From an uncultured Alphaproteobacteria bacterium (GTDB taxonomy: Bacteria > Pseudomonadota > Alphaproteobacteria > HIMB59 > GCA-002718135): a stretch of DNA of 64,000 nt. The notes under the pieces were generated by a model. That model ran no database searches and was not told the DNA's origin. It was given only the letters and a program-made list of their open reading frames with translations. The stretch covers positions 2,592 to 66,591 of the forward strand of contig CACBMH010000003.1 in assembly GCA_902539825.1 (NCBI GenBank). The letters are read 5' to 3'. Shown in pieces: positions 26,036 to 48,843 of the stretch; position 1 is the first letter of the stretch; every line of letters begins with the position of its first letter. The position numbers and the translations under genes are program-made.

Positions 26036-26044
26036 TTTACTTAT

Positions 26045-27100: not shown

Positions 27101-27109
27101 TATTTGTTT

Positions 27110-27421: not shown

Positions 27422-27498
27422 AATACCTCTTTTCAAATAAATTATATGTATTAATTTTATAAACTTATAGATAAAATTAAATTCTATAAAAAATATAA

Positions 27499-28407
27499 AT
27501 GAAAAAAATAGCTATTGTTGATTCACATCATCATCTATGGGACCTTGGTTCTAAAGAAACACATTATCCTTGGTTAAGTGGTAATGAGGATGAAGCTTTT
27601 TATGGAAGTTTTAAAAGTATTAAAAAGAGTTATTTATTAGATGATTATTTAAATGATGCAAAAAATCAAAATCTCGTGAAATCAATACATGTTCAGGCTG
27701 AACATGATGCAATGAACCCGATAGAAGAAACAAAATGGTTACAAAATATTTCAGATAATAATAATTTAAAAATCCCAAATGGGATTGTTGCATTTGCTGA
27801 TTTTTCTGAAGAAAAAGTCAGTGAAGTTCTTGATCAACACCTTGAATATAAAAATGTACGAGGAATTAGACAAATTTTGTCATTTGATAAAGATAAACCG
27901 CAATATTCTCATGCTAAAAAAGATTATTTAAAAGATGAGTTATGGCAAGATAACTTTAGACATTTGACCAATAGAAAATTATCTTTTGATATACAAATAT
28001 ATCCTCATCAGTTTGATGATGCTTGTAAATTAGCAAAACGTTACCCAAATGTACAATTTATCTTAAACCATACTGGTGAACCTTGTTTCCAAACAGAAGA
28101 ATATAAAAAATATTGGATGAGAAAGATGCAATCTTTAGCCGAACATGAAAATTTTGTTTGTAAAATATCAGGGTTGGGGATGTTTAATCCTAGTTGGACA
28201 ATTATTTCTACTGAATATTTTATTCTTAATACAATTGAAATTTTTGGTATTGATAGGTGTATGTTTGGATCAAATTTTCCTGTAGATAAAATTTTTAATA
28301 CTTTTGATAATTATTGGAGTTCATACTTTAATATTGTAAAAAATTTTTCACAAAATGAACATGATAAAATTTTTTTAAAAAATGCAGAGAAGTTTTATAG
28401 AATTTAA
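27499..28407 (+). CDS. Amidohydrolase_2-family metal hydrolase (sugar-lactonase-like)
   Basis: The N-terminal DSHHHLW and the HTGEP and GSNFPVD motifs resemble L-fucono/rhamnono-lactonase-type amidohydrolases. Confidence 0.7.
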   Translation: MKKIAIVDSHHHLWDLGSKETHYPWLSGNEDEAFYGSFKSIKKSYLLDDYLNDAKNQNLVKSIHVQAEHDAMNPIEETKWLQNISDNNNLKIPNGIVAFADFSEEKVSEVLDQHLEYKNVRGIRQILSFDKDKPQYSHAKKDYLKDELWQDNFRHLTNRKLSFDIQIYPHQFDDACKLAKRYPNVQFILNHTGEPCFQTEEYKKYWMRKMQSLAEHENFVCKISGLGMFNPSWTIISTEYFILNTIEIFGIDRCMFGSNFPVDKIFNTFDNYWSSYFNIVKNFSQNEHDKIFLKNAEKFYRI

Positions 28408-29384
28408 TGAGAAATAAAAAAAGTATAGCTATTCTTTTAGGTGATCCATCTGGAATCGGTCCTGAATTAATTTCTAAAATTCTATCTCATAATATTTTAA
28501 AAAAAATAAATATTGTAATTATTGGAGAAAAATCTGTATTTGATGGACATTTAACAAAACAAAAAAATAAAAAAAATATTAAGTTTATTAATAATTTTGA
28601 TCAAATAGAATTTAAAAGTACTAGTAAGATTTTCTTTGATATTACTAAAAAAAAAGTAAGATATCCAATTGGAAAAGCAAATATAAAATCAGGAATTTCT
28701 GTTTTAAATTCTATCGATATAGCGGTTGATTTATATAATAAGAAAAAAATAGATGGAATTAATTTTGCTCCGTTTAATAAAACAAGTTTAGATCTTGCCG
28801 GTATGAAATTTAAGGATGAACTCCATTATTTTAAAAATAAATTTAAAATAAAAAGCTACGTTTGTGAACTTAATGTATTAAATAATTTTTGGACTGCTAG
28901 AGTAACTTCACATATTCCCCTTAAAGATGTTGCAAAAAATATCAATATTAAAAATATTCTTGAACCAATTATGTTAGTTAATAAGTATTTAAAAAAAAAT
29001 GGATTTAAAAATCCAAAAGTAGGTGTTCAAGCTTTAAATCCTCACGCTGAGTTTGGAAATGAAGAGAAAAAAATAATAATTCCTGCAATAAACAAAGCAA
29101 GAAAAATGAAAATCAAAGTTTTTGGCCCGTTACCATGTGATACATCATTTATTAAAGCTTATAAAAATAAAGAGTATAATTGTCTTGTCGGAATGTATCA
29201 TGACGCCATACAATCAGGTCTTAAATCGTTTGGATTTGAAAAAGGTGTTACTGTTCAAGGTGGTCTGCCAATACCCATAACTACTCCTGCTCATGGAACA
29301 GCTTTTGATATTGTGGGTAAAAATAAAGCTAATGTAAGTCCGATGCTAGAATCTTTAAAGTTATTACTTAAACTCTTATCTTAA
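28407..29384 (+). CDS. PdxA-family NAD-dependent hydroxy-acid dehydrogenase/decarboxylase (paralog, not clearly pdxA)
   Basis: It has GDPSGIGPE, NPHAEFG and PAHGTAFDIVGKNKAN motifs and sits in a catabolic context. Confidence 0.75.
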   Translation: MRNKKSIAILLGDPSGIGPELISKILSHNILKKINIVIIGEKSVFDGHLTKQKNKKNIKFINNFDQIEFKSTSKIFFDITKKKVRYPIGKANIKSGISVLNSIDIAVDLYNKKKIDGINFAPFNKTSLDLAGMKFKDELHYFKNKFKIKSYVCELNVLNNFWTARVTSHIPLKDVAKNINIKNILEPIMLVNKYLKKNGFKNPKVGVQALNPHAEFGNEEKKIIIPAINKARKMKIKVFGPLPCDTSFIKAYKNKEYNCLVGMYHDAIQSGLKSFGFEKGVTVQGGLPIPITTPAHGTAFDIVGKNKANVSPMLESLKLLLKLLS

Positions 29385-29433
29385 TATTAAAAAATTCTCT
29401 TAAATTGATTTAAATTAGTATAATAATTATTTT

Positions 29434-30618
29434 GTGAGTAAAATTGTAAGTGTTAAAGCAAAGGTCTATAAATGGACAGGGCCCGTTCAAAAAATTCACG
29501 AAAATTTTTGCACAAATGCTGCAGATATTGTGAATCAAGAAAATATTTCAAATGATAGATGGACAACATATAAATTTCATAGCTGGTTAGTTGTTGAGAT
29601 AGAAACAAGTGATGGTTTGGTAGGTTTAGGTAATGCAGCATTATCCCCAGAACCATGTAAATCAGTTGTAGATACTTACTTAGCTCCAGCCATTATTGGT
29701 GAAAGTATATGGGATTATGAGCATATATGGCAAAAGATGTATCGCCAAACACTTGCTTGGGGGAGAAAAGGTGTAGGTATGACAGCTATTAGTGCTGTTG
29801 ATATTGCAATATGGGATGCACTAGGAAAATCTGCTAAACAACCCGTATTCAAATTATTAGGTGGAAAAACTAAATCAAAACTCCCCTGTTATGCAAGTAA
29901 GCTTTATAGTCAACCTCTTGATAGTCTTGCAAAAGAAGCTAAGGATTATGTTGATCAAGGTTTTAAAGCAATGAAATTAAGACTTGGTTGGGGTCCCACT
30001 GATGGTGCTGAAGGTATGCATAAAAATATTGAGTTAATCAAAACAGTGCGATCAGTTGTTGGTGATAATGTTGATCTTATGGCAGATGTATATATGGGAT
30101 GGACATTTGAATATGCAAAAAGAATGATGCGATTAATTGATAATGAAAATCTTCGTTGGTTAGAAGAACCAGTTATTGCTGATGATATTGATGGTTATGC
30201 AGATCTAAAAGCCTCATGTAGAACTCCTATATCTGGTGGTGAACATGAATATACACTTTTTGGTTTTAGACAATTACTAGAAAAAAAAGCAATTGATGTT
30301 GTACAATTTGATACGAATAGAGTTGGTGGTATAACACAGGCACATAAAATTTCTGCTTTAGCTGAAGCATTTCAAATACCAGTTATTCCTCACGCAGGAC
30401 AAGTTCATAATTTTCATATTTCTATGAGTTCAGTAAACGCTCCAATAGTTGAGTATTTTCCTTTTTGGCCTGTAGAAATTGGCAATGAATTATTTTGGTA
30501 TATTTTTGATGGCGAACCTCAAGCAAAAAATGGTTTTATCGAATTAGAAGAAAATAAACATGGATTAGGTATTAAGTTATCAAATAAATATTTAGATAAA
30601 TTTGAAATTATTGAGTAG
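29434..30618 (+). CDS. enolase-superfamily acid-sugar dehydratase, L-rhamnonate dehydratase-like
   Basis: It has a GTG start. The segments GWGPTDGAEG, LMADVYMGW, WLEEP and ISGGEHE align by eye with E. coli RhamD (YfaW). Confidence 0.75.
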   Translation: MSKIVSVKAKVYKWTGPVQKIHENFCTNAADIVNQENISNDRWTTYKFHSWLVVEIETSDGLVGLGNAALSPEPCKSVVDTYLAPAIIGESIWDYEHIWQKMYRQTLAWGRKGVGMTAISAVDIAIWDALGKSAKQPVFKLLGGKTKSKLPCYASKLYSQPLDSLAKEAKDYVDQGFKAMKLRLGWGPTDGAEGMHKNIELIKTVRSVVGDNVDLMADVYMGWTFEYAKRMMRLIDNENLRWLEEPVIADDIDGYADLKASCRTPISGGEHEYTLFGFRQLLEKKAIDVVQFDTNRVGGITQAHKISALAEAFQIPVIPHAGQVHNFHISMSSVNAPIVEYFPFWPVEIGNELFWYIFDGEPQAKNGFIELEENKHGLGIKLSNKYLDKFEIIE

Positions 30619-31657
30619 AATTATTTGCAATTTCATCGTTATATGCAAAAACTGCCGGACTACCACCAGTGAACATAAAAATAACGTTTTCACCTTTCTT
30701 AATGATTCCTTTTTCAACATAATCAATTAAAGCTGCAAAACCTTTTGATGTATAAACTGGATCTAAAATAATTCCCTCTTTATTAGCTAAAAGCTTTGTT
30801 GCTTTTATTCCATCTTCTGTAGTCGCACCATATTTTTCACCTACATAATTATTGTCATGATTAATCATTTTATGTGAAAACTCTAAATTAATATCAAGCA
30901 TCTTTGCTGCATCATTACATATTCTCGCTATATCTTTTTTAATATCCATTTCCCAATAAACAGGAGAAATACCTTGAATACGAGTTGGCCAATTTAATAT
31001 CTTAGCTCCTAATTCACAACCTGCTTGTGTCATATTAGCAGCAGTAACAAATAGATGATCTGCCATAAAATTTTGCTCTTTCATTTGTAAATCAATTTCA
31101 GCCATAGCATTTGCGTAACTTATACCAGCAAGAGTAGTATCCTCTTTTCCAAATCCTCCATAAATTAATAGAGGTTTTCGACCTTCTTTCATTAACTCAT
31201 TATATTTTATATCTAAATGCTTTGGTATTTCTTCTAAATTCTCACCATCAATAACATCAACATTTGCTCCCAGAATATTATATAATAAAAAATTACCTTG
31301 CATTAAGTTTCCTTTTATTCCGTGCATTAATACTAAATAACTATCTAAATTTAGTTTATTTGCAGCAGCTACAGCTTGACGGCAAAAATTAGACTGAGAT
31401 GCAGCCCCAGTTAAAATACAGTCATAATCTCCAGATAATGTTTTAGCCATTATAAACTCTAAATGTCTTGTTTTGTTTCCCCCAAAAGCTAATGCAGTGC
31501 AGTCATCTCGTTTGATATAAAGATTTATACCCAACTCTTTAGAAATATTAGGTGCAAATTCAAGTACAGTAGGTAATTGAGCTAGATTAACTCTAGGAAT
31601 TTTATTTATTCTTGAAGTTAATTCTTCAGCAGACAAAGGATTAAAATTGTTATTCAT
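30608..31657 (-). CDS. PLP-dependent ACC deaminase / D-cysteine desulfhydrase-family enzyme
   Basis: YIKRDDCTALAFGGNKTRHLEF and SQSNFCRQ parallel DcyD/AcdS motifs. Length is 349 aa. Confidence 0.8.
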   Translation of the reverse strand: MNNNFNPLSAEELTSRINKIPRVNLAQLPTVLEFAPNISKELGINLYIKRDDCTALAFGGNKTRHLEFIMAKTLSGDYDCILTGAASQSNFCRQAVAAANKLNLDSYLVLMHGIKGNLMQGNFLLYNILGANVDVIDGENLEEIPKHLDIKYNELMKEGRKPLLIYGGFGKEDTTLAGISYANAMAEIDLQMKEQNFMADHLFVTAANMTQAGCELGAKILNWPTRIQGISPVYWEMDIKKDIARICNDAAKMLDINLEFSHKMINHDNNYVGEKYGATTEDGIKATKLLANKEGIILDPVYTSKGFAALIDYVEKGIIKKGENVIFMFTGGSPAVFAYNDEIANNSTQ

Positions 31658-31676: not shown

Positions 31677-33410
31677 TTAATGACTATGTCTTTTTACTTC
31701 AGCTCCTCTTTTTCCAATAAGAAAATCTAGATCTGCTCCTTTGTCAGCTTGCATAACATGCTCTACGTACATTTTTTGATAACCACCTGTGATTTCTGGA
31801 ACAACAGGTGAATAATTTTCTAGACGATTTTTTATTATTTCTTCATTGACTTTTAAGTTCATTATACCTTGATCAACATCTACTTCTATTTCATCACCAT
31901 TTTGAACTGCTGCTAAAGGACCTTTAACTGCAGCTTCTGGAGATGTATGAAGTATTACCGTACCGTATGCTGTACCACTCATTCTAGCGTCAGATATTCT
32001 AATCATATCTCTCACACCTTTTTTAAGAACTTTTTGTGGAAGACGCATATTACCTACTTCAGCCATACCAGGGTAACCCTTTGGCCCACAATTTTTTAAA
32101 ACTAATATTGAATTTTCATCAACGTCTAAATTGGGATCATCAATCTTTTCATGAAATTCTTCTACACTTTCAAAAACTACCGCTTTTCCAGTATGTTTCA
32201 TTAATTCTGGTGATGCAGCTGATGGTTTAATAATTGCACCATTTGGAGCAATATTACCCCTAAGAATTTTAATTCCTCCATTTTTTGTTAATGGATTTTC
32301 AAATTCTTTGATAACATCATTGTTCCAACATTTAGCATTTATATTATTCTCAGATATAGTTTTTCCATTAACAGTCATTTCATTTTCTTCTAATAGATTT
32401 TTTTCCATTAATCTTTTTATAACTACAGGAACACCACCTGCATAATAAAAATCTTCCATTAAGTATTTTCCAGAAGGTTGTAGATTTACTAATGTTGGAA
32501 TACCATCTCCACATTTATTCCAATCTTCTAAATCTAAATCTATTTCCATTCGACCTGCGATTGCAGCTAGATGGATAACTGCATTTGTAGATCCCCCTAT
32601 TGCTCCATTGACCTTGATTGCATTTTCAAATGATTTTTTTGTAACAATTTTTGACATAGTTATATCTTCCTTAACCATTTCAACAATTCTTTTTCCAGAC
32701 ATATGAGCTAAAGCATATCTTCTTGAGTCAACTGCAGGTATCGCAGCATTTCCAGGTAGTGACATCCCTAATGCTTCCACCATTGATCCCATTGTTGATG
32801 CGGTACCCATTGTCATACAATTACCTTTTGATCTACTCATTGAAATTTCTGCATTAATAAAATCTTCTTCTGTAATTACACCAGCGTTTAAATCTGCATC
32901 AAGTTTCCAAACACCAGTGCCAGAACCTATTGTTTCACCTTGATGGTGTCCATTAAGCATTGGGCCACCTGAAACACCTATTGTAGGAAGATCTACACTT
33001 GCAGCTCCCATCATTAATGAAGGTGTTGTTTTATCACATCCCATTAATAATACGACTCCGTCTATAGGATTACCCCTTATTGCCTCTTCAACATCCATAC
33101 TTGCTAAATTTCTAAACAACATAGCTGTAGGTCTTAAATTGGATTCACTTGCTGAAAAAACAGGAAATTCAAGAGGAAAACCACCAGCTTCATAAACACC
33201 TTTTTTAACAGACTCTGCTATCTCTCTGAAATGACCATTACAAGGAGTTAATTCAGACCATGTATTACAAATTCCAATTACAGGACGGCCATCAAACAAA
33301 TGATTTGGATGACCTTGATTTCTCATCCAGCCTCTATGAATAAATGTATCTCTTCGATGTGATTTAGAATTATACCAATTAGAAGATCTAAATTTATTTT
33401 TTTTATTCAT
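31677..33410 (-). CDS. IlvD/Edd-family dehydratase (aldonate dehydratase-like)
   Basis: It has CNGH, GCDKTTPS and GTASTM motifs. It is 577 aa, with an N-terminus like pentonate dehydratases. Confidence 0.85.
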   Translation of the reverse strand: MNKKNKFRSSNWYNSKSHRRDTFIHRGWMRNQGHPNHLFDGRPVIGICNTWSELTPCNGHFREIAESVKKGVYEAGGFPLEFPVFSASESNLRPTAMLFRNLASMDVEEAIRGNPIDGVVLLMGCDKTTPSLMMGAASVDLPTIGVSGGPMLNGHHQGETIGSGTGVWKLDADLNAGVITEEDFINAEISMSRSKGNCMTMGTASTMGSMVEALGMSLPGNAAIPAVDSRRYALAHMSGKRIVEMVKEDITMSKIVTKKSFENAIKVNGAIGGSTNAVIHLAAIAGRMEIDLDLEDWNKCGDGIPTLVNLQPSGKYLMEDFYYAGGVPVVIKRLMEKNLLEENEMTVNGKTISENNINAKCWNNDVIKEFENPLTKNGGIKILRGNIAPNGAIIKPSAASPELMKHTGKAVVFESVEEFHEKIDDPNLDVDENSILVLKNCGPKGYPGMAEVGNMRLPQKVLKKGVRDMIRISDARMSGTAYGTVILHTSPEAAVKGPLAAVQNGDEIEVDVDQGIMNLKVNEEIIKNRLENYSPVVPEITGGYQKMYVEHVMQADKGADLDFLIGKRGAEVKRHSH

Positions 33411-33442: not shown

Positions 33443-34318
33443 TCAAATTTTAAATTTATTATCTTCAAGTCCAGACACATTAACATTTAATGCAAATAGA
33501 CTACCATCATATTGATTTTTACCTGAATTTGTAGCACTTGTAATAAATAAAGTTTTAAGATCACTTCCTCCAAATACACAATTTGTTACGTTTTCAACAG
33601 GTAGCTCATAGATTTTATCTATTCTTCCTTTAGGATCAATTCTCACTACACATGAACCACCCCAACGACAATTCCAAATAAAGCCATCGCCATCAATAGT
33701 TGATCCATCTGGAGCACCTCTATCAAAATTGAAAAAATTTTTTTTGTCTGACAAACTACCTTCATCTAGGTTAAAATTGTATTCTAGTAATGATCCCTCA
33801 GTTGTATCGGCAAAATAAAATTTCGTATTATCTGGACTCCAAACAAATGTGTTAGGTATACCAAGATTTGTTTCAACAATATTTACCTTATTATCAGATA
33901 GACAATATAAACTTCCAGATTTAGCATTTAAAGATTTTGGACTTCCATCTTGATTAAAATTATTTTGCATAGTGCCAAACCAGAGCCTGCCCCTAGCATC
34001 AGATGCACCATCATTAGATCTATTTGTTAAAATATCATCTTCAACATTAATTATTCTTTCGTATTTTTTAGATTGAAAGTTAAATTTATTTACTCCATTA
34101 TTTGAGACTAAAGCAATTTCATTTTTTGAGATTATTGATGTCGCTGTTACAAAATCAGGTAAATCAAAAGTTTCTAATTTTTCGTTATCTAAATCAATTC
34201 TGAATAAAACTGATTTTGGTTTAATATCTACCCAAAGTAAACTTTGATCAATTGAAGACCACGTGATACCTTCTCCCAAACTATTTTTTACATCTTTATA
34301 TAATTCGACCTTACTCAT
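33443..34318 (-). CDS. SMP-30/gluconolactonase/LRE-family lactonase
   Basis: It has GEGITWS, NDGASDARGRLWFGTM and PDGSTIDGDGFIW beta-propeller motifs and is 291 aa. Confidence 0.85.
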   Translation of the reverse strand: MSKVELYKDVKNSLGEGITWSSIDQSLLWVDIKPKSVLFRIDLDNEKLETFDLPDFVTATSIISKNEIALVSNNGVNKFNFQSKKYERIINVEDDILTNRSNDGASDARGRLWFGTMQNNFNQDGSPKSLNAKSGSLYCLSDNKVNIVETNLGIPNTFVWSPDNTKFYFADTTEGSLLEYNFNLDEGSLSDKKNFFNFDRGAPDGSTIDGDGFIWNCRWGGSCVVRIDPKGRIDKIYELPVENVTNCVFGGSDLKTLFITSATNSGKNQYDGSLFALNVNVSGLEDNKFKI

Positions 34319-34362: not shown

Positions 34363-35367
34363 TTAGAGATAATGTGCTTTATCTTTAATACGAGCCATTA
34401 CTTCTTTGGTCGCTTCTTCAGATCCATCATGGAACGTACCCATTAATTTATCTAAGAAACTAGTATTTCCACCTGAATAATTGCATTCAAAATATTTATG
34501 ATGAATATAATGCATATAATCACCTGTTGGAATTGATACACCATTTTTGAAAGTCATTTTTTCATATCCTGTATGTCCAGGTGTAGGTGCTAAACCAGCA
34601 TGAAATACATGATACATCGCAACAAGAGGATGTGAAGGGATTATCCAATGAACTAAGATTCCTGAAAAATAGAGTATATGCTCTATTGGATGCATAGACA
34701 TACCTGACCAAGCACCTGTATTCGTATTACGGTGGTGTACTTTATGTGCAATTTTATAAAGTGGTGCCCAGTGTAGTAATCTATGAGTTAAGTAAAAATG
34801 TGCGTCTCTTATAAACGGAACAAGAAAGAACATAAAACAACAATATATTGGATACGCCTCCCAGCTTACGTAAGGGATTATTTGATTTGCAAATGCCCAA
34901 AATGTAATTACTTCATAAGCTGTCCACAATGGAATAGCACTACAAAAAGTATAGAATAGGTTATCTTTAGTCTGATCATTAAATAGAAATGTTGAGTTAT
35001 TTTTCTCCAAAGGTCGCGGATTATATTTAAATGAAGTTCCTTGTCTCTTTAATCTTAAATGAAAGAAGCCTGTCCAGAGCAAAATAATAACTGCATTTCT
35101 AAAAAATATATATGATATCCATCCTATTTCAAAAGTTTTCATTGTCTCTAAAGAAGGAGTCAAAAAAAGATATGTAGCAACTGTTATTGCTGCAAAGACA
35201 AAAGTCCATGGGAAAAAAATTCCAGGAAATTTAAAAAAATACTTTAAAAATTTTATTGGGTTAAAAAATATATCTTTAGGTGGGTTAATACTTATTGTAC
35301 CAAATGGTTTCCAATGACCTCTTTTATCTCTTGTACCAAAATCACTGTCATTTAGTTGATTACTCAT
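34363..35367 (-). CDS. fatty-acid-hydroxylase / sterol-desaturase-superfamily membrane di-iron oxygenase
   Basis: It has His boxes HRLLH, HKVHH, HPIEH and HYIHH, and several TM helices. Confidence 0.8.
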   Translation of the reverse strand: MSNQLNDSDFGTRDKRGHWKPFGTISINPPKDIFFNPIKFLKYFFKFPGIFFPWTFVFAAITVATYLFLTPSLETMKTFEIGWISYIFFRNAVIILLWTGFFHLRLKRQGTSFKYNPRPLEKNNSTFLFNDQTKDNLFYTFCSAIPLWTAYEVITFWAFANQIIPYVSWEAYPIYCCFMFFLVPFIRDAHFYLTHRLLHWAPLYKIAHKVHHRNTNTGAWSGMSMHPIEHILYFSGILVHWIIPSHPLVAMYHVFHAGLAPTPGHTGYEKMTFKNGVSIPTGDYMHYIHHKYFECNYSGGNTSFLDKLMGTFHDGSEEATKEVMARIKDKAHYL

Positions 35368-35405
35368 AATGTATTTATAGTATATTTTGAATAAAAAAAA
35401 AGAGA

Positions 35406-36422
35406 CTAAATTGTCGTATCTGGAACCTTCACATCAATATAATAATTTTTATCTTTATATTGCTTAAATATTGCTGGGATTATTGATCTATAAGCAGAAA
35501 TTATTCCGTTGTGAGGTTCTGGCATTTGATTTTTAACTATTTTGTGAAATTTTTTTAAATTATGGCATGGAATTTTTGGGAAAATATGGTGCTCAATATG
35601 ATACTCCATGTTTGAATATAAAAAACTAAAAAAGGGATTCATAATAACAGTTCTTGTACTTTTTCTATGATCTTTAATATTATCGGCTAGTCCTGCGTGT
35701 TGAGTCATGGCACAAATCATTAATACAGTGTTGCCATAAAATGGAGGAAAAATTATCATAATAATTGGCAACCATGATTGAAGCAAAACTGAGGATAAAA
35801 TTACAAGTAGCCAAAAACTTAAATATAATCTTGAACTATTAATTATTTTTTTTATCTCCTTTTCAGGTACTGTAACTTTTACAACAGGAGTAATTATCCC
35901 AAATGAATGTTTAATAATTTCAAAATGCGTAAAATGTCTTATTTTTTGAATATTAATTATTGGACCAAGGGGTAAAAAATTTAAAAGAAATCTGATAGGT
36001 TCTGTTGGTTTCGGACTATTATTTTCGTAATCATACACCTCCTCATGTGTAAATATGGTGTAAGTATGGTGATGAAAATGACTCCACTTCCATCTAACTG
36101 CCTCAAAACCACCGAGTAAAGAAGTTATATGATAAAGAAATTTATTTAACGCTCTTGTTTTAAAATATGTTTCGTGATTTGTTTCATGTTGAATGCTTAT
36201 GATTTTACAATAGAAAATATTTCCATAAAGTAAAAGAGCAGGTATTGACCATAAACTACCCCAACTTATAATACACAGATATCCACTTAATATTAAAGCA
36301 ACAATAAATACGGATATATCTAATAAACCTTTTATATCGGATCTCGTAGAAAGTTCCTTTAAAGTTTTCTTATCTATTTTTGGTTTATACCAAGTTTTTA
36401 AATCAACTTCGCCCGCAAACAT
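35406..36422 (-). CDS. fatty-acid-desaturase-family membrane di-iron protein (paralog B)
   Basis: It has His boxes HETNH, SHFHHH and HIEHH with TM helices. It is clearly paralogous to the 38879..39865 gene. Confidence 0.8.
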   Translation of the reverse strand: MFAGEVDLKTWYKPKIDKKTLKELSTRSDIKGLLDISVFIVALILSGYLCIISWGSLWSIPALLLYGNIFYCKIISIQHETNHETYFKTRALNKFLYHITSLLGGFEAVRWKWSHFHHHTYTIFTHEEVYDYENNSPKPTEPIRFLLNFLPLGPIINIQKIRHFTHFEIIKHSFGIITPVVKVTVPEKEIKKIINSSRLYLSFWLLVILSSVLLQSWLPIIMIIFPPFYGNTVLMICAMTQHAGLADNIKDHRKSTRTVIMNPFFSFLYSNMEYHIEHHIFPKIPCHNLKKFHKIVKNQMPEPHNGIISAYRSIIPAIFKQYKDKNYYIDVKVPDTTI

Positions 36423-36425
36423 TAA

Positions 36426-37253
36426 TCAAAATTTTTCTGAAAGCTTTAAAAATTTTTCAAATTCACCTTCATCAATGTTAACAGTGATTTTAGGATCATT
36501 AAATTTTTTGTTTACCGTATCATCGTGAAACTCTTTGAATGCATTTACTCTTTCAGCTTGTAGTTTTGAAAATTCTTTTTTAAAATCTCTATAAATTCTC
36601 GCATGTCTTGGAATTTTTCCTTGAGTATATCCGAGTACATCATTAGCAAATAAATATTGCCCATCACATCCAGAACCACTTCCCATTGAGAGAGTCATGA
36701 TATCAACTTTTTTTGTAATAACTTCTGCAACTTTTGGTGGAACTACTTCGAGTTCAACTCCAATAGCACCCGCTTCTTGTAACTCAAGAGTATGTTCTAA
36801 TATTCTTATGGCTTTATCTGCTGTTTTACCTTGTGCAACAAATCCTCCAATCCAAGTAGCATTTCCTGGAACTAATCCAACATGACTATTAATTGGAACA
36901 TATTCATCTCTTAATGCTCTAATCCATTTGTAGCTCCAATTACCACCATAGATAACATCTGCACCAATGTCTAAATACTTGTGTGATAGTTTCATAGCTT
37001 CGTATTCAGAAGCTACTCTTACTGCTCCTCCAGATTGCATAAAGCAAGTTGGTGCAGCCTCACGAATTCGCTTAAGCTCATCAAAAGAATTGAAAATACC
37101 AAATTGTGGAGCATCATGAGAAGTACAAATCATGTCAATGCCTGCCTCTTCAGCTGCTGCAGCTTCATCAGCATTATGCACGAACATAACACTTAGTTGT
37201 CTTTTACCCTTGCATTGCAAATAATCATAAACTGTAAGTTTTTTTCTGCTCAT
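36426..37253 (-). CDS. PanB-like (ketopantoate hydroxymethyltransferase family, PEP/pyruvate-domain TIM barrel) enzyme
   Basis: VGLVPGNATWIGGF..QGKT....LE....LQEAGA..VELEVVP..VAE.IT and GSGSGCDGQ align by eye with E. coli PanB. It is embedded between oxygenase genes. Confidence 0.7.
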   Translation of the reverse strand: MSRKKLTVYDYLQCKGKRQLSVMFVHNADEAAAAEEAGIDMICTSHDAPQFGIFNSFDELKRIREAAPTCFMQSGGAVRVASEYEAMKLSHKYLDIGADVIYGGNWSYKWIRALRDEYVPINSHVGLVPGNATWIGGFVAQGKTADKAIRILEHTLELQEAGAIGVELEVVPPKVAEVITKKVDIMTLSMGSGSGCDGQYLFANDVLGYTQGKIPRHARIYRDFKKEFSKLQAERVNAFKEFHDDTVNKKFNDPKITVNIDEGEFEKFLKLSEKF

Positions 37254-37273
37254 AAAATCTCCAAAAAAAATAG

Positions 37274-37591
37274 TTAATCTATCTTAATGAAAATTTTGTC
37301 ATTATCAACTTTAACTGGATATGTTTTTAAATCCTCACACGCTGGTGGGCTTAAAGCTTCTCCGGATTTAATATTAAAAATTCCCTGGTGCATTGGACAT
37401 TCAATTTCATCATCCATAACCAAACCATCTTCAAGATGTACCGCCTCGTGTGTACAAATTCCATCAGTAGCATAAAAACCATCTGTTAGCTTATACACAC
37501 AAAAAGTTTTATCTTGATGATCAAATCTGATGAGATCCTCTTCTTCAATACTATCTGTAGCCCCTACTTCAATCCAATTTTCTTCAGACAT
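37274..37591 (-). CDS. Rieske-type [2Fe-2S] ferredoxin
   Basis: It has CTHEAVH and CPMHQG ligand motifs and is a 105-aa stand-alone protein. Confidence 0.9.
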   Translation of the reverse strand: MSEENWIEVGATDSIEEEDLIRFDHQDKTFCVYKLTDGFYATDGICTHEAVHLEDGLVMDDEIECPMHQGIFNIKSGEALSPPACEDLKTYPVKVDNDKIFIKID

Positions 37592-37643
37592 AATTTGTAT
37601 ATAATAGCTATTTTATGAAAATAAATACAAAATAATTAAATTG

Positions 37644-38873
37644 TTATTTTTGTATAAGTTTATTTAATTTTAGATTTTGATCTGAGAGAATTTGTTTATC
37701 TACAATGGTATCTTTCTCAGTTAATTTAGAAGTTATTCTAATATCACGGCCTACTTTTCCTATGATTCCAACACCACATGCTCCTCTTATTTTATTATTT
37801 TTTAGGAAAAAATAAATAACACCATTATTAATATCATTACCTCTTTCGATGATTTCATCATACTCATCACAAATACCAGTCAGTTGAAGATTCAAATTAA
37901 ATTGATCAGACCACATCCAAGGAATTGAAGTATATTCTGTTTTTACTCCAGCAATGTTTTTTCCAGCACATATTCCATGATTTTGTGCATGTTGATAAGA
38001 CTCGAGTCGCATATTTCTTTCATAGAATGGATGATAAAAATTAGATACGTCACCTGCTGCAAAAACATCTTTAATAGAAGTTTCACAAAATTGATTAGTT
38101 ACAATACCATTATCAAGCTTTAAATTTGTATTTTCAAATAACTTTACAGTCGGGGTTGAGCCTATACCTGCAATTATAAAATCTGTTTCTATTAAAGAAT
38201 TATCATTTAATAAAATTTCATAATCGCCATTTTTTTTAGTTATTTTTTCTATCTGCTTATTTAATATTATTTCATTTCCATGTTCTATATGAGTGTTTTG
38301 AACTAAATCAGCAATTTGTTTGGGTATAATTCTTCCCATAAGTTGATTGCCAATTTCAATAACAATTACTTTCTTTTGAAGCTGAGATAAAGATGAGGCA
38401 ATTTCTAAGCCAATGAAACCGCCACCAATAATTGTTATTTTATTTTTATTTGAAACTATTTCTTTAATTTTTTTGGCTTCTTCTAAATTTCTTAGATAAT
38501 AAATATCATTCTTTAAATTATTATCTAAACTAAGTTTTTTATTTTCAGAACCTGTTGAAATAAGCAAACTATCATAAGAGTAAACATTATCATTTTTTGC
38601 AAAAAGTTTTTTATTTTCAAAATCAACTTTATTAATTGATATATTTTCAAATTCTATATTTTCATTTTTTAGTACGTCGCTAGAATGAAAATAAAGATCT
38701 TCTTCTTTTTTTTTATCTAGCAAAAAATCTTTAGATAAAGGAGGTCTTTCGTATGGTAATAAATTTTCTTCACCTAAAATTTTAATATTTGATTTTGAAT
38801 CATTTTGTCTGATCTCTCTAGCAGCATATATTCCGGCTTGACCACCACCTAGAATTACAATGTTATTTTTCAC
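37644..38873 (-). CDS. FAD-dependent ferredoxin-NAD(P)+ reductase (pyridine nucleotide-disulfide oxidoreductase family)
   Basis: It has ILGGGQAG (FAD) and IIGGGFIGLE (NAD) dinucleotide folds and AAGDV. It is 409 aa, with the length and architecture of BphG/CamA-type reductases. Confidence 0.85.
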   Translation of the reverse strand: MKNNIVILGGGQAGIYAAREIRQNDSKSNIKILGEENLLPYERPPLSKDFLLDKKKEEDLYFHSSDVLKNENIEFENISINKVDFENKKLFAKNDNVYSYDSLLISTGSENKKLSLDNNLKNDIYYLRNLEEAKKIKEIVSNKNKITIIGGGFIGLEIASSLSQLQKKVIVIEIGNQLMGRIIPKQIADLVQNTHIEHGNEIILNKQIEKITKKNGDYEILLNDNSLIETDFIIAGIGSTPTVKLFENTNLKLDNGIVTNQFCETSIKDVFAAGDVSNFYHPFYERNMRLESYQHAQNHGICAGKNIAGVKTEYTSIPWMWSDQFNLNLQLTGICDEYDEIIERGNDINNGVIYFFLKNNKIRGACGVGIIGKVGRDIRITSKLTEKDTIVDKQILSDQNLKLNKLIQK

Positions 38874-38878
38874 TCAGT

Positions 38879-39865
38879 CTAAGCGTTGCTTGGAACAGAT
38901 AATGGAATTTGATAGTCAGGATTTTTTGCTTGTTTTATGAGTGCTGGAATAATTTCTTTATAAGCCCCAAGAAGACCTTTTCTGGCAGGTGGTAATTGAT
39001 CTTTAATCATAGCATGCAGCTTAGGTAAATTATGTGAGGGAACTTGAGGGAACATATGGTGCTCAACATGATATTCCATATGCCAATATAAAAAACTTAA
39101 AACTGGATTTAAATATACTGTTCTAGTTGTATACCTATGGTCTCTTTTATCTTCTCTAAGTCCTGCGTGTTGAGTAAGACCCATAAGCATAACAAGGGTC
39201 TTTCCATAAAAATTAGGCAATAAAACATATAGAACTGGAAGCCAACTTTGAAAGTAAACTGAAGAAGCTATACTAATTATCCAAATAGAAAGATGACTCC
39301 ACGCAGATAATCTACATTTCCATCTTTCATTTTTTGGAATACAAACTTTCATTACATCAGTAGTTACACCAAATGCATGTTTTATAGTTTCCCATTGAAG
39401 AGAATTTTTAAAGAAAATAAAACCAGAGAATGGAATGTAATGAGAGAAAAACACAATCAAGTCAGTTGGTTTTTTTACATGTATTTCAAAATCTACAGGA
39501 TCATTAAATTGAGTATAAGTATGATGATGATAGTGAGAATATCTCCATCTGATAGGTTCAAAATTATCCATGAAACTAGCAATATAATAAAAGAAATCAT
39601 TCCAGAATTTAGATTTAAAAGCAGTTCTGTGACCAGTTTCATGCCATATAGCATCGCTGCATCCCCAAATATTTCCGTATATTATAAAAAATAATAATGA
39701 CCACCAAGTGCCCCAAGTGACATACGCAAGATATCCAAAGAGAAACAGAGATGAAAAATAAATAATCATATGCTTAAAACCCTGCCAATCAGATTTCTTG
39801 CATAACTGCTTGAATTCTTTTTTATCTATATTTGCTCGATACCATTTACCTAAATCAACATCCAT
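38879..39865 (-). CDS. fatty-acid-desaturase-family membrane di-iron protein (paralog A)
   Basis: It has His boxes HETGH, SHYHHH and HVEHH with TM helices. It is the first gene of the minus-strand operon. Confidence 0.8.
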   Translation of the reverse strand: MDVDLGKWYRANIDKKEFKQLCKKSDWQGFKHMIIYFSSLFLFGYLAYVTWGTWWSLLFFIIYGNIWGCSDAIWHETGHRTAFKSKFWNDFFYYIASFMDNFEPIRWRYSHYHHHTYTQFNDPVDFEIHVKKPTDLIVFFSHYIPFSGFIFFKNSLQWETIKHAFGVTTDVMKVCIPKNERWKCRLSAWSHLSIWIISIASSVYFQSWLPVLYVLLPNFYGKTLVMLMGLTQHAGLREDKRDHRYTTRTVYLNPVLSFLYWHMEYHVEHHMFPQVPSHNLPKLHAMIKDQLPPARKGLLGAYKEIIPALIKQAKNPDYQIPLSVPSNA

Positions 39866-40055
39866 AATGAAAAAATAGCACTTTTTGATAATCTTATAAA
39901 TATAAAAATTGCTTTAAATTGGCAAATAAGTGCGACTATTTTATCTATCAAAAGAAAGAGGGATTTAATTTGTAATAAGATCTTTAATACTTTAATTTAA
40001 TTGTATTATTGATTTATTTACTTATAAATTAATGCATAAATTATTTGGAGGAATT

Positions 40056-41036
40056 ATGAAAAAAATCTTTGCTGTCATTGCTTTATTTTTTGCTTTTGCA
40101 TCTACTTCAGCAGTAGCAAAAAATGATTACAGCTGTGATAAGAAATTTATATTTTTTCCAGGTGGTCCAGAAGGTGGTCCATTTGGAACTATCGTTTACA
40201 ATGGTGCAGTAGCTGCTGCTGAACACACTGGTTGTGAAGTAGATTACTACTGGTCACAGTGGAACTCAGAAATCATGATTAAACAATTTAAAGAAGCTGT
40301 TGCTTTACAGCCTGATGGAATTGCAATCTATGGTTTTCCAGGAGACGCTGCAATGAGACCTATCATTCAAGAAGCAAGAGAAATGGGTATAGTAATTACT
40401 ACTATGAATACACCTCTTCCTGATCTTGAATCAGAATATAAAACTGAAGGATTTGGTTATGCAGGTGCAGATCTATTTGATGCTGGATTCAATCTAGGTA
40501 AAAAAGCTGTTGAAGTTTGTGGTCTACAAGCTGGAGATAAAGCATTTATCTGGGGTCTTGCAAGTATGCCAAATAGAGGAGAAAGAACTAAAGGTGCAAT
40601 AGCTGGTGTTGAAGCAGCGGGTGTTGAGGTAGTTTATCAAGAAATTCCTGATAATGTAAACTCAGATGCATCTCAGGGAACTCCTATGTACGTTGCTACT
40701 TATAGTGCAAATCCTGATATCAAAATGGCTATTACAGATCATGGTGGATTAACTGCAAGTTTACCAACATATATGAAGGCTGCAGGTCATGGTACTGAAG
40801 AAGTATGTGGCGCTGGATTTGATTTATCAGCTCCAATTGTTGACGGAATTAATTCTGGATACATTGACGTTGTAATTGATCAACAACCATTTATCCAAGG
40901 ATATATGCCAATTGTTCAGTTATTCCTAAGTACAAAATATGGAATGGCTGGATTAGCAATGGATACTGGTGCTGCATTTGTTACAGCTGATAACGTTGAT
41001 GCTGTTGCTCCATTAGCAGCAGTACAAATCAGATAA
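40056..41036 (+). CDS. periplasmic sugar-type ABC substrate-binding protein (Peripla_BP_4-like)
   Basis: The start at 40056 is preceded by GGAGG. It has the signal peptide MKKIFAVIALFFAFASTSAVA. GC content is higher and codon use is biased relative to neighbours. Confidence 0.85.
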   Translation: MKKIFAVIALFFAFASTSAVAKNDYSCDKKFIFFPGGPEGGPFGTIVYNGAVAAAEHTGCEVDYYWSQWNSEIMIKQFKEAVALQPDGIAIYGFPGDAAMRPIIQEAREMGIVITTMNTPLPDLESEYKTEGFGYAGADLFDAGFNLGKKAVEVCGLQAGDKAFIWGLASMPNRGERTKGAIAGVEAAGVEVVYQEIPDNVNSDASQGTPMYVATYSANPDIKMAITDHGGLTASLPTYMKAAGHGTEEVCGAGFDLSAPIVDGINSGYIDVVIDQQPFIQGYMPIVQLFLSTKYGMAGLAMDTGAAFVTADNVDAVAPLAAVQIR

Positions 41037-41050
41037 ATTAAATATTATAG

Positions 41051-41083
41051 CCTGCCTTATTTAATAAGGCAGGTTTATTTTTT
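41051..41083 (+). terminator. intrinsic-terminator-like hairpin between the binding-protein and ATPase genes (intra-operon attenuator)
   Basis: CCTGCCTTAT-TTA-ATAAGGCAGG forms a 10-bp stem followed by TTTATTTTTT, and the ATPase ATG follows directly. Confidence 0.75.
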
Positions 41084-41851
41084 ATGGCTGAAGAACTCTT
41101 AAAATTACAAAATATTTACAAAAACTTTGGAAACGTAAAAGTTTTAAAAGATGTGAATATCAAAATAAATAAAGGTGAAGTGGTAGCTTTAATCGGTGAT
41201 AACGGAGCTGGAAAATCTACACTTATTAAAGTTATAACTGGAGTTCATAGCCCAAACTCGGGTAAAGTTTTTTTTAAAGAAGAAGAGGTACAAATTAAAT
41301 CAGTTGCTCAATCAAGAAAAATGGGGATTGAAGCAGTGTATCAAGAAAGAGCATTATGTGATCAGCAAGAATTATATAGAAATATCTTTGCAGGAAGAGA
41401 AATTACAAATTCATTTGGTTTTTTAGATATAAAAAAACAAAGAAAAGAAGCAGAAAAAATTTTACGGGACTATATAGGTTTTACTTCAAAAGCTATAACA
41501 GTTGATTCTCAAGTAATGGGTCTGTCTGGTGGAGAAAAACAAGGTGTAGCTTTCGGTAGATCATTATATTTTAATTCTGATTTAATCGTATTAGATGAAC
41601 CAACAATGGGATTATCGATACAAGAAACAGAAAAAGTTCTTAATTTTGTAAAAGGTTTAAAAAATGAAAACAAATCTGCAATATTTATCGATCATAATAT
41701 TATACACGTATATGGAGCTGCAGATAGATTTATTATTTTAGATAGAGGTGAGGTTGTTGGGGAGTTTAATAAAGAAGATATTTCAAGGGAAGAGCTTGTT
41801 CAAAAAATGATTCAACTTCATGAATCAGGAAAAATAAAAGTGGAAGATTAA
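41084..41851 (+). CDS. ABC transporter ATP-binding protein (single NBD)
   Basis: It has Walker A GDNGAGKST, signature LSGGEKQ and Walker B LIVLDEPT. Confidence 0.9.
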   Translation: MAEELLKLQNIYKNFGNVKVLKDVNIKINKGEVVALIGDNGAGKSTLIKVITGVHSPNSGKVFFKEEEVQIKSVAQSRKMGIEAVYQERALCDQQELYRNIFAGREITNSFGFLDIKKQRKEAEKILRDYIGFTSKAITVDSQVMGLSGGEKQGVAFGRSLYFNSDLIVLDEPTMGLSIQETEKVLNFVKGLKNENKSAIFIDHNIIHVYGAADRFIILDRGEVVGEFNKEDISREELVQKMIQLHESGKIKVED

Positions 41852-42829
41852 ATGAATAATTTATTAAATAGTTATTTTGTAAAAACTCACAAACTTGAAA
41901 TTAGTATTACTATAATTGCTGTAGTACTATTCCTAATTTATTTTCTTGGCGCACCACATGTATTTACAAGATTTCCTATTTATAGAGCTTTTATGCAATC
42001 AATGCCTTTTTTTGGAATTATTGCTATATCAGCAACATTTGTTGTTACACTTGGTGAAATTGATTTATCATTTCCATCTATAGTTGGAATTACATCTCTC
42101 ATATTTGGAATTATAATGACATCGACTGATGGTAACTTTTTTATAGCATTTATTTTGGCAACTTCACTTGGAATGTTTGCTGGATTAGTAAATGGATTAC
42201 TTGTTACTAAAATTGGCATACCTTCAATAGTTGCCACTATAGGTACATTATTTTTTTGGCGTGGATTAGTTAATGTAATTTCCCAAGGTAGTGGTATTGC
42301 AATCGTCGATGTAGCAGATGGAACATGGCATCATATGATATTTGTTGAAAAATTATTTGGAAAAATTCCAATGCAATTTATTTGGTTCATTGTATTAACT
42401 GGATTGATGCAATGGGTTTATCGATACCATAAATTTGGAAATCATATCCACTTTGTAGGTGATAACAAAGCAAGCGCTCAAATGATGGGAATTAATGTTG
42501 ATAATGTAAAAATTATTGCTTTTGTTCAACTAGGATTTTTCTCTGCATTAGCAGGAATTTTTACAATGTATGAAATGTTATATTTCTGGCCTACACAAGG
42601 TGAAGGTTTGATGTTGACAACACTAGCAGCCGTCTTTGTTGGTGGCACTTCAGTCTTCGGTGGTAAGGGTACTATTTTTGGAACTTTTATTGGAGTATTA
42701 ATTATTGGATCATTAGAATCAGGAATAGTTGCTTTAGGCTTATCTGGTTTTTATGTAAAATTTATTAACGGACTCATGATTACAGTAGCCGTAACAGTCT
42801 ACGCCCTAATACAAAGAAGAAAAAATTAA
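41852..42829 (+). CDS. ABC transporter permease (RbsC/BPD_transp_2 type)
   Basis: It has about 9 TM helices and is 325 aa. Its start abuts the ATPase stop. Confidence 0.85.
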   Translation: MNNLLNSYFVKTHKLEISITIIAVVLFLIYFLGAPHVFTRFPIYRAFMQSMPFFGIIAISATFVVTLGEIDLSFPSIVGITSLIFGIIMTSTDGNFFIAFILATSLGMFAGLVNGLLVTKIGIPSIVATIGTLFFWRGLVNVISQGSGIAIVDVADGTWHHMIFVEKLFGKIPMQFIWFIVLTGLMQWVYRYHKFGNHIHFVGDNKASAQMMGINVDNVKIIAFVQLGFFSALAGIFTMYEMLYFWPTQGEGLMLTTLAAVFVGGTSVFGGKGTIFGTFIGVLIIGSLESGIVALGLSGFYVKFINGLMITVAVTVYALIQRRKN

Positions 42830-43563
42830 TAAGTAGCTCGACCACCACTCAAATCAAAAGTTGATCCTGTGGTATAAGAATTTTCTTCAGAAGACATCCA
42901 AGCAACTAAAGAAGCTAATTCTTCTACTAACACAAATCTATTTCTTGGAATTTTTGATAACATATAATCAATATGTTCTTGTGTAATTTGATCAAAAATA
43001 CGCGTCTTAGCAGGTGCAGGGGTAACACAATTAACTGAAATGTTATTTTCAGCTAATTCTTTTCCTAAAGATTTAGTAAGTGCAATAACTCCTGCTTTTG
43101 CAGCACTATAAGGCATTGCATTAGGATTACCCTCCTTACCAGCTATCGAGGAAATATTAACGATACGTCCATAATTATTTTTGATAAAATGAGGAACTAT
43201 AGTTTTACAGCAATAAAATACTCCTGTTAGATCTATGTCTATAACTTTTTGCCATTCCTCAAGTGGATAATCCCATGTCTTAAAGTTTGGTCCAGCTATT
43301 CCTGCATTATTTATTAAAATATCAATTTTGTTTTCATGTGTAAGACTTTCTGTAAATGCATTCTCTACACTTTTATAATTTGAAACATCAACTTCAATTT
43401 TTTGAGTATTTTTTAGATCAACCTTATTTAAATATTCTGTATCTTTATCCCATATTAGTACTCTTGCACCTGACTCTATAAATCTTTTTGTAATTGCTAA
43501 TCCAAAGCCTTGTGCTCCACCCGTTACAATTGCTACTCTATTTTCTAAATTAATTTTATTCAT
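42826..43563 (-). CDS. short-chain dehydrogenase/reductase (SDR)
   Basis: It has TGGAQGFG, NNAG and the catalytic YSAAK. Confidence 0.9.
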   Translation of the reverse strand: MNKINLENRVAIVTGGAQGFGLAITKRFIESGARVLIWDKDTEYLNKVDLKNTQKIEVDVSNYKSVENAFTESLTHENKIDILINNAGIAGPNFKTWDYPLEEWQKVIDIDLTGVFYCCKTIVPHFIKNNYGRIVNISSIAGKEGNPNAMPYSAAKAGVIALTKSLGKELAENNISVNCVTPAPAKTRIFDQITQEHIDYMLSKIPRNRFVLVEELASLVAWMSSEENSYTTGSTFDLSGGRATY

Positions 43564-48684: not shown

Positions 48685-48776
48685 TAATCCTCCATTATAA
48701 ATTTCACAGTACATGGCTCACACTGAGTCATGTGTTACTTTTCATGCTTAGCTATGGAAATTAATTACTAAGATCC

Positions 48777-48828: not shown

Positions 48829-48843
48829 TTTATAACTTTGCAT

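Follow-up and report, generated by a model that had tools for sequence, protein, structure and literature searches.

The MocDEF system of rhizopine catabolism in rhizobia consists of a fatty acid desaturase-like membrane oxygenase (MocD), a Rieske ferredoxin (MocE) and a flavin adenine dinucleotide (FAD) reductase (MocF); according to the passages of three later papers that refer to it, it was proposed in 1998 by Bahar et al. (PMC10107442, PMC5789663, PMC13434037). Homologues of mocDEF are induced by root exudate, the most concentrated component of which is the methyl-inositol pinitol (PMC5789663), and clusters of LacI and mocDEF genes were noted earlier, with an inositol derivative suggested as the substrate (PMC3538637). 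Here we describe a six-gene SAR11 operon in a 64,000-nucleotide stretch of DNA from an uncultured alphaproteobacterium (contig CACBMH010000003.1; the whole stretch is referred to below as the window). The operon encodes two MocD-like membrane di-iron oxygenases (DesA and DesB), a reductase, a Rieske ferredoxin, a PanB-like TIM-barrel protein and a third membrane oxygenase of the fatty acid hydroxylase/sterol desaturase family. On the basis of its sequence, we conclude that the operon is of the known but biochemically uncharacterised MocDEF kind, expanded to three oxygenases and coupled to a sugar-acid route.

The likeness to MocDEF lies in the joint presence of an FA_desaturase-family oxygenase, a MocE-family ferredoxin and a glutathione-reductase-type FAD reductase; as at moc loci, a PanB-like gene lies downstream and a sugar-type binding-protein importer lies nearby, with identities of 32-59%. 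The ferredoxin, with the cluster-ligand motifs CTHEAVH and CPMHQG, matched the NCBIfam model TIGR02377 (MocE_fam_FeS) over residues 5-104 of 105 with 136.3 bits (cut-off 136.15), and is 59% identical to MocE encoded on plasmid pPR12A203 of R. indicum (locus L086), which itself scored 178 bits with the same model. Since the regulator of L086 passes the MocR equivalog of NCBIfam (739 bits versus 650), L086 is a genuine moc locus; its gene order is iolE-like, Gfo/Idh/MocA, binding protein, MocR, MocD, MocE, MocF, PanB-like and PurU, and its PurU, a formyl-tetrahydrofolate deformylase, passes TIGR00655 (330.6 bits versus 285.95). The reductase carries the nucleotide-fold motifs GGGQAG and GGGFIG and is 32% identical to MocF of L086 over 410 residues; its best NCBIfam matches, to HcaD and AndAa-type ferredoxin reductases, were both under the cut-off. 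Among the nine proteins encoded by the operon and the three genes following it on the same strand, the 105-residue ferredoxin is the sole Rieske protein, and a ring-hydroxylating alpha subunit of the Rieske non-haem type (Rieske plus mononuclear iron domain) is absent. A preliminary description of this DNA had held that no characterised system of such composition existed, and that a Rieske ferredoxin with a glutathione-reductase-type reductase does not serve the membrane family. Neither statement holds, because the composition matches MocDEF, which is exactly that combination and has been in the literature since 1998; the view of a self-contained multicomponent oxygenase, with several membrane di-iron enzymes beside one reductase/Rieske pair, is upheld.

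DesA and DesB are 44% identical to each other, and 39% and 34% identical, respectively, to MocD of L086 over their full length (approximately 326-335 residues). The histidine boxes are HETGH, SHYHHH and HVEHH in DesA, which also has an invariant Q232-H233, and HETNH, SHFHHH and HIEHH in DesB. Alignments including the rhizobial homologues revealed that H75, H79, H111, H114, H115, H233, H266, H269 and H270 are invariant. Searching plasmids by tblastn found full-length DesA homologues with 42-44% identity, the one on Sinorhizobium pSymB among them, in 293 records, mostly of Rhizobium and Sinorhizobium.

A sequence search of the PDB with DesA gave no match at E <= 1. For its AlphaFold2 model, with a predicted local distance difference test score (pLDDT) of 88.1, the top PDB folds were 8xks_K and 8xqw_M, chains of the chloroplast Orf2971-FtsHi and Ycf2-FtsHi complexes; AlkB (8f6t) was the third-best Foldseek match (E 4e-3, template modelling (TM) score 0.44) and stearoyl-CoA desaturase a weak structural match. 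The predicted structure fits the membrane di-iron class and lends no support to membership of the AlkB/XylM group or of the acyl-CoA desaturases. The AlkB/AlkG/AlkT and XylM/XylA systems resemble the present one in that they belong to the eight-histidine membrane di-iron class and depend on an external NADH-dependent chain, and AlkB is a detectable structural neighbour; but they act on hydrophobic substrates, and the TM score to AlkB is low and unaccompanied by any sequence match in the PDB. They receive electrons from rubredoxin or a plant-type ferredoxin domain, where the present system has a Rieske ferredoxin.

The third oxygenase, with four histidine motifs (HRLLH, HKVHH, HPIEH and HYIHH), scored well above the gathering cut-off of 31 bits for PF04116; a finer assignment was sought and gave neither an NCBIfam match nor a PDB sequence match. 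Orthologues with 45-53% identity were found in three other alphaproteobacteria. In Jiella pelagia (L087) the order is LacI, sterol-desaturase-family protein, MocD, MocE, MocF, TIM barrel and Gfo/Idh/MocA; in Mesorhizobium (L088) it is ribokinase, PanB-like, sterol-desaturase-family protein, Rieske ferredoxin and reductase; and in Bauldia (L071) the orthologue adjoins MocD and MocF. Two distinct membrane di-iron families thus adjoin the same ferredoxin and reductase, and the PanB-like gene is present in one of these three loci as well (Mesorhizobium). The occurrence of a sterol-desaturase-family oxygenase with this electron chain does look new. Because the family stands beside the same MocE/MocF chain, a partner role linked to a common product, and not to one substrate, is suggested.

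The SAR11 operon also departs from its rhizobial relatives in several ways. Its order is oxygenase, reductase, ferredoxin, whereas the rhizobial one is oxygenase, ferredoxin, reductase; it has three terminal oxygenases where MocDEF has one; it is without MocR or LacI, MocA/MocC/iol genes within the operon, and PurU; and, unlike moc, it is followed by lactonase, IlvD dehydratase and pyridoxal phosphate (PLP) enzyme genes, in a host that is a streamlined marine oligotroph. Pfam and NCBIfam searches found neither a MocR or LacI regulator nor an iol gene within the operon or beside it. Two Gfo/Idh/MocA genes (26045-27100 and 48999-50150) and one for a xylose-isomerase-like TIM barrel (50163-51215) lie 8-10 kb away. 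The last two stand side by side on the minus strand, 9 kb from the operon (48999-51215; the TIM barrel is of the AP_endonuc_2 family), and such a pair of MocA-like and MocC/IolE-like genes accompanies PanB-like and MocD genes elsewhere.

A second group of relatives is formed by LacI-controlled (FixV-like) operons on pSymB, in NGR234 and on plasmids of R. etli and R. leguminosarum, which share with the SAR11 operon the oxygenase, Rieske ferredoxin, reductase and PanB-like gene, and which contain the best plasmid matches of DesA (42-44% identity). They differ in having a single oxygenase and a regulator of the LacI type, with a sugar epimerase/TIM-barrel gene adjoining. On pSymB of S. meliloti and on R. 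etli pA the genes are annotated as desaturase-family protein, MocE-family ferredoxin, FAD oxidoreductase and '3-methyl-2-oxobutanoate hydroxymethyltransferase'. A Marivivens relative has iolG, iolC and iolD nearby. The order of L086 recurs on pSymA of S. meliloti BL225C (L097), with a partial PanB-like match followed by PurU, and at two more Rhizobiales loci (L070, L077) PurU lies no further than 7 kb away. The PanB-like match of L097 (12689-13117, between mocF and purU) covers half the length at 87% identity by tblastn, and the gene may be frameshifted or truncated.

PanB chemistry is a reversible hydroxymethyl transfer beside a carbonyl. The PanB-like protein of the operon is 41% identical to the product of the gene following mocF in L086, and matched the NCBIfam PanB models only over its C-terminal two thirds and well under their cut-offs (NF001452, 117.9 bits versus 272; TIGR00222, 103.3 bits versus 207.55); the PanB-like protein of L086 was likewise under the curated cut-offs. 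Its AlphaFold2 model (pLDDT 86.5) superimposed on the PanB structures 3vav, 1m3u and 1o68 with TM scores of 0.78-0.83 over approximately 270 columns at 20-25% identity. In ketopantoate hydroxymethyltransferases, D45/46, D84, K112, E114, H136 and E181 show strict conservation and are probably essential, and the active site contains Mg2+ (PMC13488298). Alignment with E. coli PanB, the N-terminal 69 residues of which were entered by hand, revealed that four of the six (D45/46, D84, K112 and E114) are missing: there is a deletion of the GDS segment, Gly stands in place of D84, and (D)V-I-Y-G is read where K112 and E114 would lie. H136 (own H124), E181 (own E169) and the C-terminal half of the barrel are retained. 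A further 26 PanB-like sequences, of SAR11 and rhizobial origin, were aligned, and every one shows the same losses and keeps H136 and E181; these proteins carry an additional conserved C-terminal stretch of approximately 45 residues. The protein thus shares fold and Pfam family with PanB (EC 2.1.2.11) but is not a true ketopantoate hydroxymethyltransferase, and its gene lies in catabolic oxygenase operons and not with panC/panD.

The association of this gene with MocD-like oxygenases is recurrent. Hits were found in 248 plasmid records, compared with 293 for MocD-like proteins, with an identical genus distribution, and four of five contigs encoding different PanB-like proteins had an FA_desaturase gene no more than 7 kb away, accompanied by LacI, Gfo/Idh/MocA, xylose-isomerase-like TIM barrel and Peripla_BP_4 genes in differing combinations. 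As a conserved fourth partner of MocDEF-type systems, the PanB-like protein does look new. A role as an aldolase of 2-keto-3-deoxy-sugar acids was considered and rejected as the leading interpretation: the metal ligands are gone, and the gene also occurs in iol-type loci without such an intermediate.

The window comes from SAR11; a scan of genomes found relatives in many Pelagibacterales, and 100% identical DNA in the single-cell genome AG-891-K19. The window proteins were compared by tblastn with 80 genome loci, of which 12, all in SAR11 single-cell genomes and with DesA at least 75% identical, were classed as window-type. The PanB-like gene and the ABC (ATP-binding cassette) importer were found in all 12, the Rieske ferredoxin and the FAD reductase in 11 each, and the second desaturase, the FA_hydroxylase-family gene, the lactonase and the IlvD dehydratase in nine each; the short-chain dehydrogenase was kept beside the importer in most. 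A clade with 60-66% identity has the PanB-like gene in four out of four loci. The block is modular, since two loci (L009, L013) are without DesB and the hydroxylase-family gene, and two others (L011, L012) have one PanB-like gene behind each desaturase, the second copy following DesB. Single clusters of marine metagenome sequences at 90% identity contain more than 2,000 DesA and more than 1,000 PanB-like sequences.

The commonest SAR11 paralogue of DesA, approximately 52% identical, has neither the Rieske/reductase pair nor the PanB-like gene. Its gene order is proteorhodopsin, the paralogue, a plant-type [2Fe-2S] ferredoxin, a thioredoxin-reductase-like flavoprotein and glutathione S-transferase, as in Ca. 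Pelagibacter ubique HTCC8051 (L038:9155-13027); 17 loci are fully syntenic and one short contig ends before the flavoprotein, making 18 (also L019-L026, L030-L035, L045, L049 and L062). This paralogue has its own ferredoxin and reductase, which suggests that a dedicated electron chain is the rule and that the type of chain varies. The preliminary description had named absence of the Rieske ferredoxin and reductase from most relatives as a finding that would speak against it: they are missing beside this paralogue, with its own chain, but present in nearly all window-type loci. A retinal or carotenoid-related role is conceivable for the proteorhodopsin-adjacent paralogue.

Two further arrangements were observed in SAR11. 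A stretch of the single-cell genome AG-447-P01 (L039:165-15490) encodes five MocD-like paralogues, a PanB-like protein, an IlvD-type dehydratase and a sugar importer, and no Rieske ferredoxin or reductase was found within it. The other locus type (L036:2753-12048; also L027, L029, L037, L041, L047, L050-L052, L056, L057 and L063) has a MocD-like gene, aldehyde dehydrogenase, binding protein and ABC genes, ThuA, Gfo/Idh/MocA, a second MocD-like gene and LacI, the latter detected in four. Its ThuA and Gfo/Idh/MocA genes resemble the 3-keto-sugar route of trehalose utilisation. A PanB-like gene follows the aldehyde dehydrogenase in L047, and L042 and L054 are fragments of this type only (Des, aldehyde dehydrogenase, PanB-like). 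Substitution of the aldehyde dehydrogenase for the PanB-like protein where the latter is missing was considered and rejected, as both are present together in L047, L054 and L042.

We lean towards the interpretation that the operon is an expanded MocDEF-type membrane oxygenase system which demethylates imported methylated carbohydrates and passes the one-carbon (C1) unit to tetrahydrofolate (THF) through the PanB-like protein. O-methyl sugars or cyclitols would be taken up by the divergent sugar-type ABC importer. Electrons would flow, as family membership suggests, from NAD(P)H through the FAD reductase and the MocE-family Rieske ferredoxin to the three integral-membrane di-iron oxygenases, each of which would hydroxylate a methyl ether; the resulting hemiacetal would collapse to a free hydroxyl and formaldehyde. 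The PanB-like protein, having lost its keto-acid/Mg2+ site, could hand the C1 unit to THF, giving 5,10-methylene-THF. The demethylated sugar might then be oxidised to a lactone, with the short-chain dehydrogenase or a Gfo/Idh/MocA enzyme as candidates, the lactone opened by the lactonase, and the aldonate dehydrated by the IlvD-type enzyme.

Demethylation in place of plain hydroxylation, the identity of the substrate and the THF role of the PanB-like protein are what we infer, the last from the PurU linkage together with the loss of the keto-acid/Mg2+ site. Methylated pentoses, hexoses or deoxyhexoses are plausible substrates, because the neighbouring genes are fuconolactonase-like, rhamnonate-dehydratase-like, xylulokinase and GlcD-like. 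A place in small-molecule catabolism, not in housekeeping lipid desaturation, had already been suggested for the system in the preliminary description, and agrees with the importer, lactonase and IlvD dehydratase here and with LacI, iol and Gfo/Idh/MocA genes in relatives; of the candidates then named, O-alkyl groups on sugars are favoured by the evidence.

Several observations weigh against this interpretation. The ferredoxin exceeds the MocE cut-off by only 0.15 bits. No in vitro assay of any member of the MocD clade was found in the literature, the rhizopine demethylation model itself consisting of genetics and homology; the literature likewise yielded nothing useful on pinitol or methyl-inositol demethylases, on SAR11 with rhizopine, or on PanB-like and PurU partners of mocDEF, and the one pinitol paper deals with fungal P450s and vanB (PMC9788770). 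The operon has no MocR or iol gene, so that rhizopine is an unlikely substrate, and perhaps a cyclitol as well. Enzymes of THF metabolism (PurU, FolD) were not found in the SAR11 locus. Of 18 more distant loci, 14 are without the PanB-like gene, and 13 of the 18 have the Rieske ferredoxin. The fifth PanB-like protein mentioned above (marine metagenome contigs L091:7001-13338 and L092) heads an unrelated row with no desaturase nearby, namely FGase (N-formylglutamate amidohydrolase family), glutamine-synthetase-like, aldehyde dehydrogenase, Fe-alcohol dehydrogenase and HAD hydrolase, adjoining a nuo operon, and the idea of a demethylase partner leaves this row unexplained. The recurrent triad of Gfo/Idh/MocA, xylose-isomerase-like TIM barrel and PanB-like protein is also compatible with a keto-sugar substrate. 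To our knowledge, the position at which true PanB binds methylene-THF is not established, and a THF half-site kept by the PanB-like protein is therefore conjecture.

The same triad would suit an alternative that we consider unlikely, in which the oxygenases hydroxylate C-methyl groups or other C-H positions, for example of 6-deoxyhexoses or C-methyl cyclitols, and the PanB-like protein removes the hydroxymethyl group by a THF-dependent retro-aldol reaction after an adjacent ketone has formed. The reversibility of PanB chemistry accords with such a step, the fuconolactonase-like and rhamnonate-dehydratase-like genes adjoin the operon, an aldehyde dehydrogenase follows the Des paralogue in another SAR11 locus type, and the PurU linkage is equally compatible with it. 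But rhizopine, the sole substrate tied genetically to such a system, is O-methylated and not C-methylated, and yet its locus has the PanB-like and PurU genes; moreover, the PanB-like protein is without the Mg2+ ligands and the K112 that true PanB needs for enolisation. The substrate might instead be an amino acid or amino sugar, or a hydrocarbon or aromatic methyl group as for XylM and AlkB, which seems to us improbable. GntB, the L-arginine gamma-hydroxylase of guanitoxin biosynthesis, is an FA_desaturase-family enzyme acting on a small hydrophilic molecule, and its model was the top NCBIfam match for DesB and the second for DesA; a PLP enzyme closes the operon, AlkB ranks third among the structural matches of DesA, and aromatic substrates have been speculated on in P. 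syringae literature (PMC5132102). Yet GntB belongs to a biosynthetic context and its model scored only 32-45 bits against a cut-off of 380, the fold similarity to AlkB is low, the importer has a binding protein of the monosaccharide type, and there are no downstream pathway genes for aromatics or alkanes.

That the three membrane enzymes are ordinary lipid desaturases or hydroxylases (acyl-lipid, sterol/hopanoid or carotenoid), unconnected with the sugar genes around them, is highly improbable. Their Pfam families do bear the names of lipid enzymes, there are weak NCBIfam matches to the lipid desaturases of the same names DesA and DesB and to CrtR, and for the most widespread SAR11 paralogue, beside proteorhodopsin, a carotenoid or retinal role has been conceded above. 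However, the lipid desaturase equivalogs scored 21.6-38 bits against a cut-off of 500, orthologues throughout the alphaproteobacteria are located at moc, LacI and sugar-importer loci, and the genes are tightly packed with the lactonase and dehydratase genes beside an importer that no window-type locus has lost.

SAR11 is the most abundant heterotroph of the surface ocean, and semi-labile dissolved organic matter in the sea is recognised to include methylated and deoxy sugars. We know of only one marine sugar demethylase characterised so far, a Bacteroidetes P450. In that system a cytochrome P450 with a ferredoxin and a reductase demethylates 6-O-methyl-D-galactose (PMC6292453), and it resembles the reaction proposed here in that oxidative O-demethylation by a three-component chain frees a marine sugar and releases formaldehyde; it differs in having an unrelated soluble haem enzyme and no PanB-like partner, and in being biochemically characterised, the SAR11 operon being known from sequence only. 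Should the module demethylate sugars or cyclitols, SAR11 would gain a route to methylated compounds and C1 units for energy, and the MocD clade would bring hydrophilic substrates, with Rieske ferredoxins as electron donors, into the range of the membrane di-iron oxygenases.

What had gone unremarked is the degenerate PanB-like partner, together with its connection to C1 metabolism through THF. With PurU it stands behind mocDEF in two independent moc loci, which offers a testable handle on a step that has been left a paper model for 25 years, and the protein would exemplify re-use of a fold after loss of most of the catalytic site. Tentatively, and with some doubt, we suggest that it represents a new kind of C1 partner of membrane di-iron demethylases, either trapping formaldehyde as 5,10-methylene-THF or moving the hydroxymethyl group onto THF, and that the multi-oxygenase versions in SAR11 demethylate sugars of marine dissolved organic matter. 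If so, the sugar would be unlocked for catabolism and the THF-linked C1 oxidation of SAR11 fed, and the 'mocDEF' operon would be a five-gene unit of oxygenase, ferredoxin, reductase, C1 carrier enzyme and PurU.

The coordinates of the operon and of the adjoining genes are listed in Table 1. Open reading frames (ORFs), translations and Pfam matches agree with the preliminary description as to the six same-strand genes (39865 to 34363), their motifs and the divergent importer. The intergenic gaps are 5, 52, 20, 3 and 38 nt in the order of transcription, and the strand runs on from the hydroxylase gene into the lactonase, dehydratase and PLP genes with gaps of 44, 32 and 19 nt. As had been described, no terminator-like site was found between the genes by a promoter/terminator scan, which is weak evidence; the sites that the scan did find were no commoner than in shuffled sequence. 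From this layout we infer that the operon is co-transcribed.

Table 1. Coordinates in the window of the operon genes and the features next to them
Feature	Position	Strand	Size and family matches
DesA, MocD-like membrane di-iron oxygenase, operon gene 1	38879..39865	-	328 aa; PF00487 113.6 bits
MocF-like FAD/NAD(P)H ferredoxin reductase	37644..38873	-	409 aa; PF07992 206.9 bits, PF00070, PF14759 Reductase_C
MocE-family Rieske [2Fe-2S] ferredoxin	37274..37591	-	105 aa; PF00355; TIGR02377
PanB-like TIM-barrel protein	36426..37253	-	275 aa; PF02548, residues 82-251 only
DesB, second MocD-like membrane di-iron oxygenase	35406..36422	-	338 aa; PF00487 115.8 bits
FA_hydroxylase/sterol-desaturase-family membrane di-iron oxygenase	34363..35367	-	334 aa; PF04116 71.3 bits
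SMP-30/gluconolactonase-type sugar lactonase (SGL)	33443..34318	-	PF08450 240.5 bits
IlvD/EDD-family sugar-acid dehydratase	31677..33410	-	PF00920, PF24877
PLP enzyme, D-cysteine desulfhydrase/ACC deaminase family, last gene on strand	30608..31657	-	PF00291
Divergent intergenic (promoter) region between operon and importer	39866..40031	.	166 nt, AT-rich
Sugar-type ABC importer: binding protein 40032-41036, ATPase 41084-41851, permease 41852-42829	40032..42829	+	PF13407 Peripla_BP_4
Short-chain dehydrogenase	42826..43563	-	PF00106 / PF13561

An Rfam search of the divergent intergenic region gave no match and hence no riboswitch. Within this region the segment TAGATAAAATAGTCGCACTTA (operon-strand reading, 39920-39950; L006:9922-9945) is comparatively GC-rich and conserved among six window-type loci, and could be an operator; no regulator gene was found near it. 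An antisense ORF of 105 codons within DesA (39377-39694, plus strand) is of low complexity and is most likely a by-product of AT-rich sequence and not a gene.

The IlvD-type dehydratase passes NF004784 with 913 bits and scored 835 bits with the L-arabinonate dehydratase equivalog (cut-off 882). The best NCBIfam match of the PLP enzyme was CuyA (268 bits versus a cut-off of 450), and the 3' end of its gene overlaps a convergent gene of the enolase superfamily (rhamnonate-dehydratase-like) at 30608-30618. The sole NCBIfam match of the importer's binding protein was the rhizopine-catabolism binding-protein model NF052284, at 83 bits far under the cut-off of 420. The short-chain dehydrogenase is possibly a sugar 1-dehydrogenase feeding the lactonase.

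The convergent gene belongs to the remainder (20041-30618) of the island that contains the operon, likewise devoted to sugar or sugar-acid metabolism, in which xylulokinase, an EamA transporter, a beta-lactamase-fold esterase, an Ldh_2 dehydrogenase, a GlcD-like FAD oxidase, a Gfo/Idh/MocA enzyme, a fuconolactonase-like amidohydrolase, a PdxA-like dehydrogenase and the rhamnonate-dehydratase-like enolase are encoded. The island as a whole is flanked by housekeeping genes, with purine synthesis to the left and DsbD-like and amt genes to the right. A weak match to PurU at 4575-5117 was rejected as such; it sits among the genes of purine biosynthesis and probably represents PurN. Two tandem glutamine riboswitch aptamers (RF01739, 62.1 and 59.7 bits) were found on the minus strand at 48774-48896, upstream of the ammonium transporter gene at 47398-48714.

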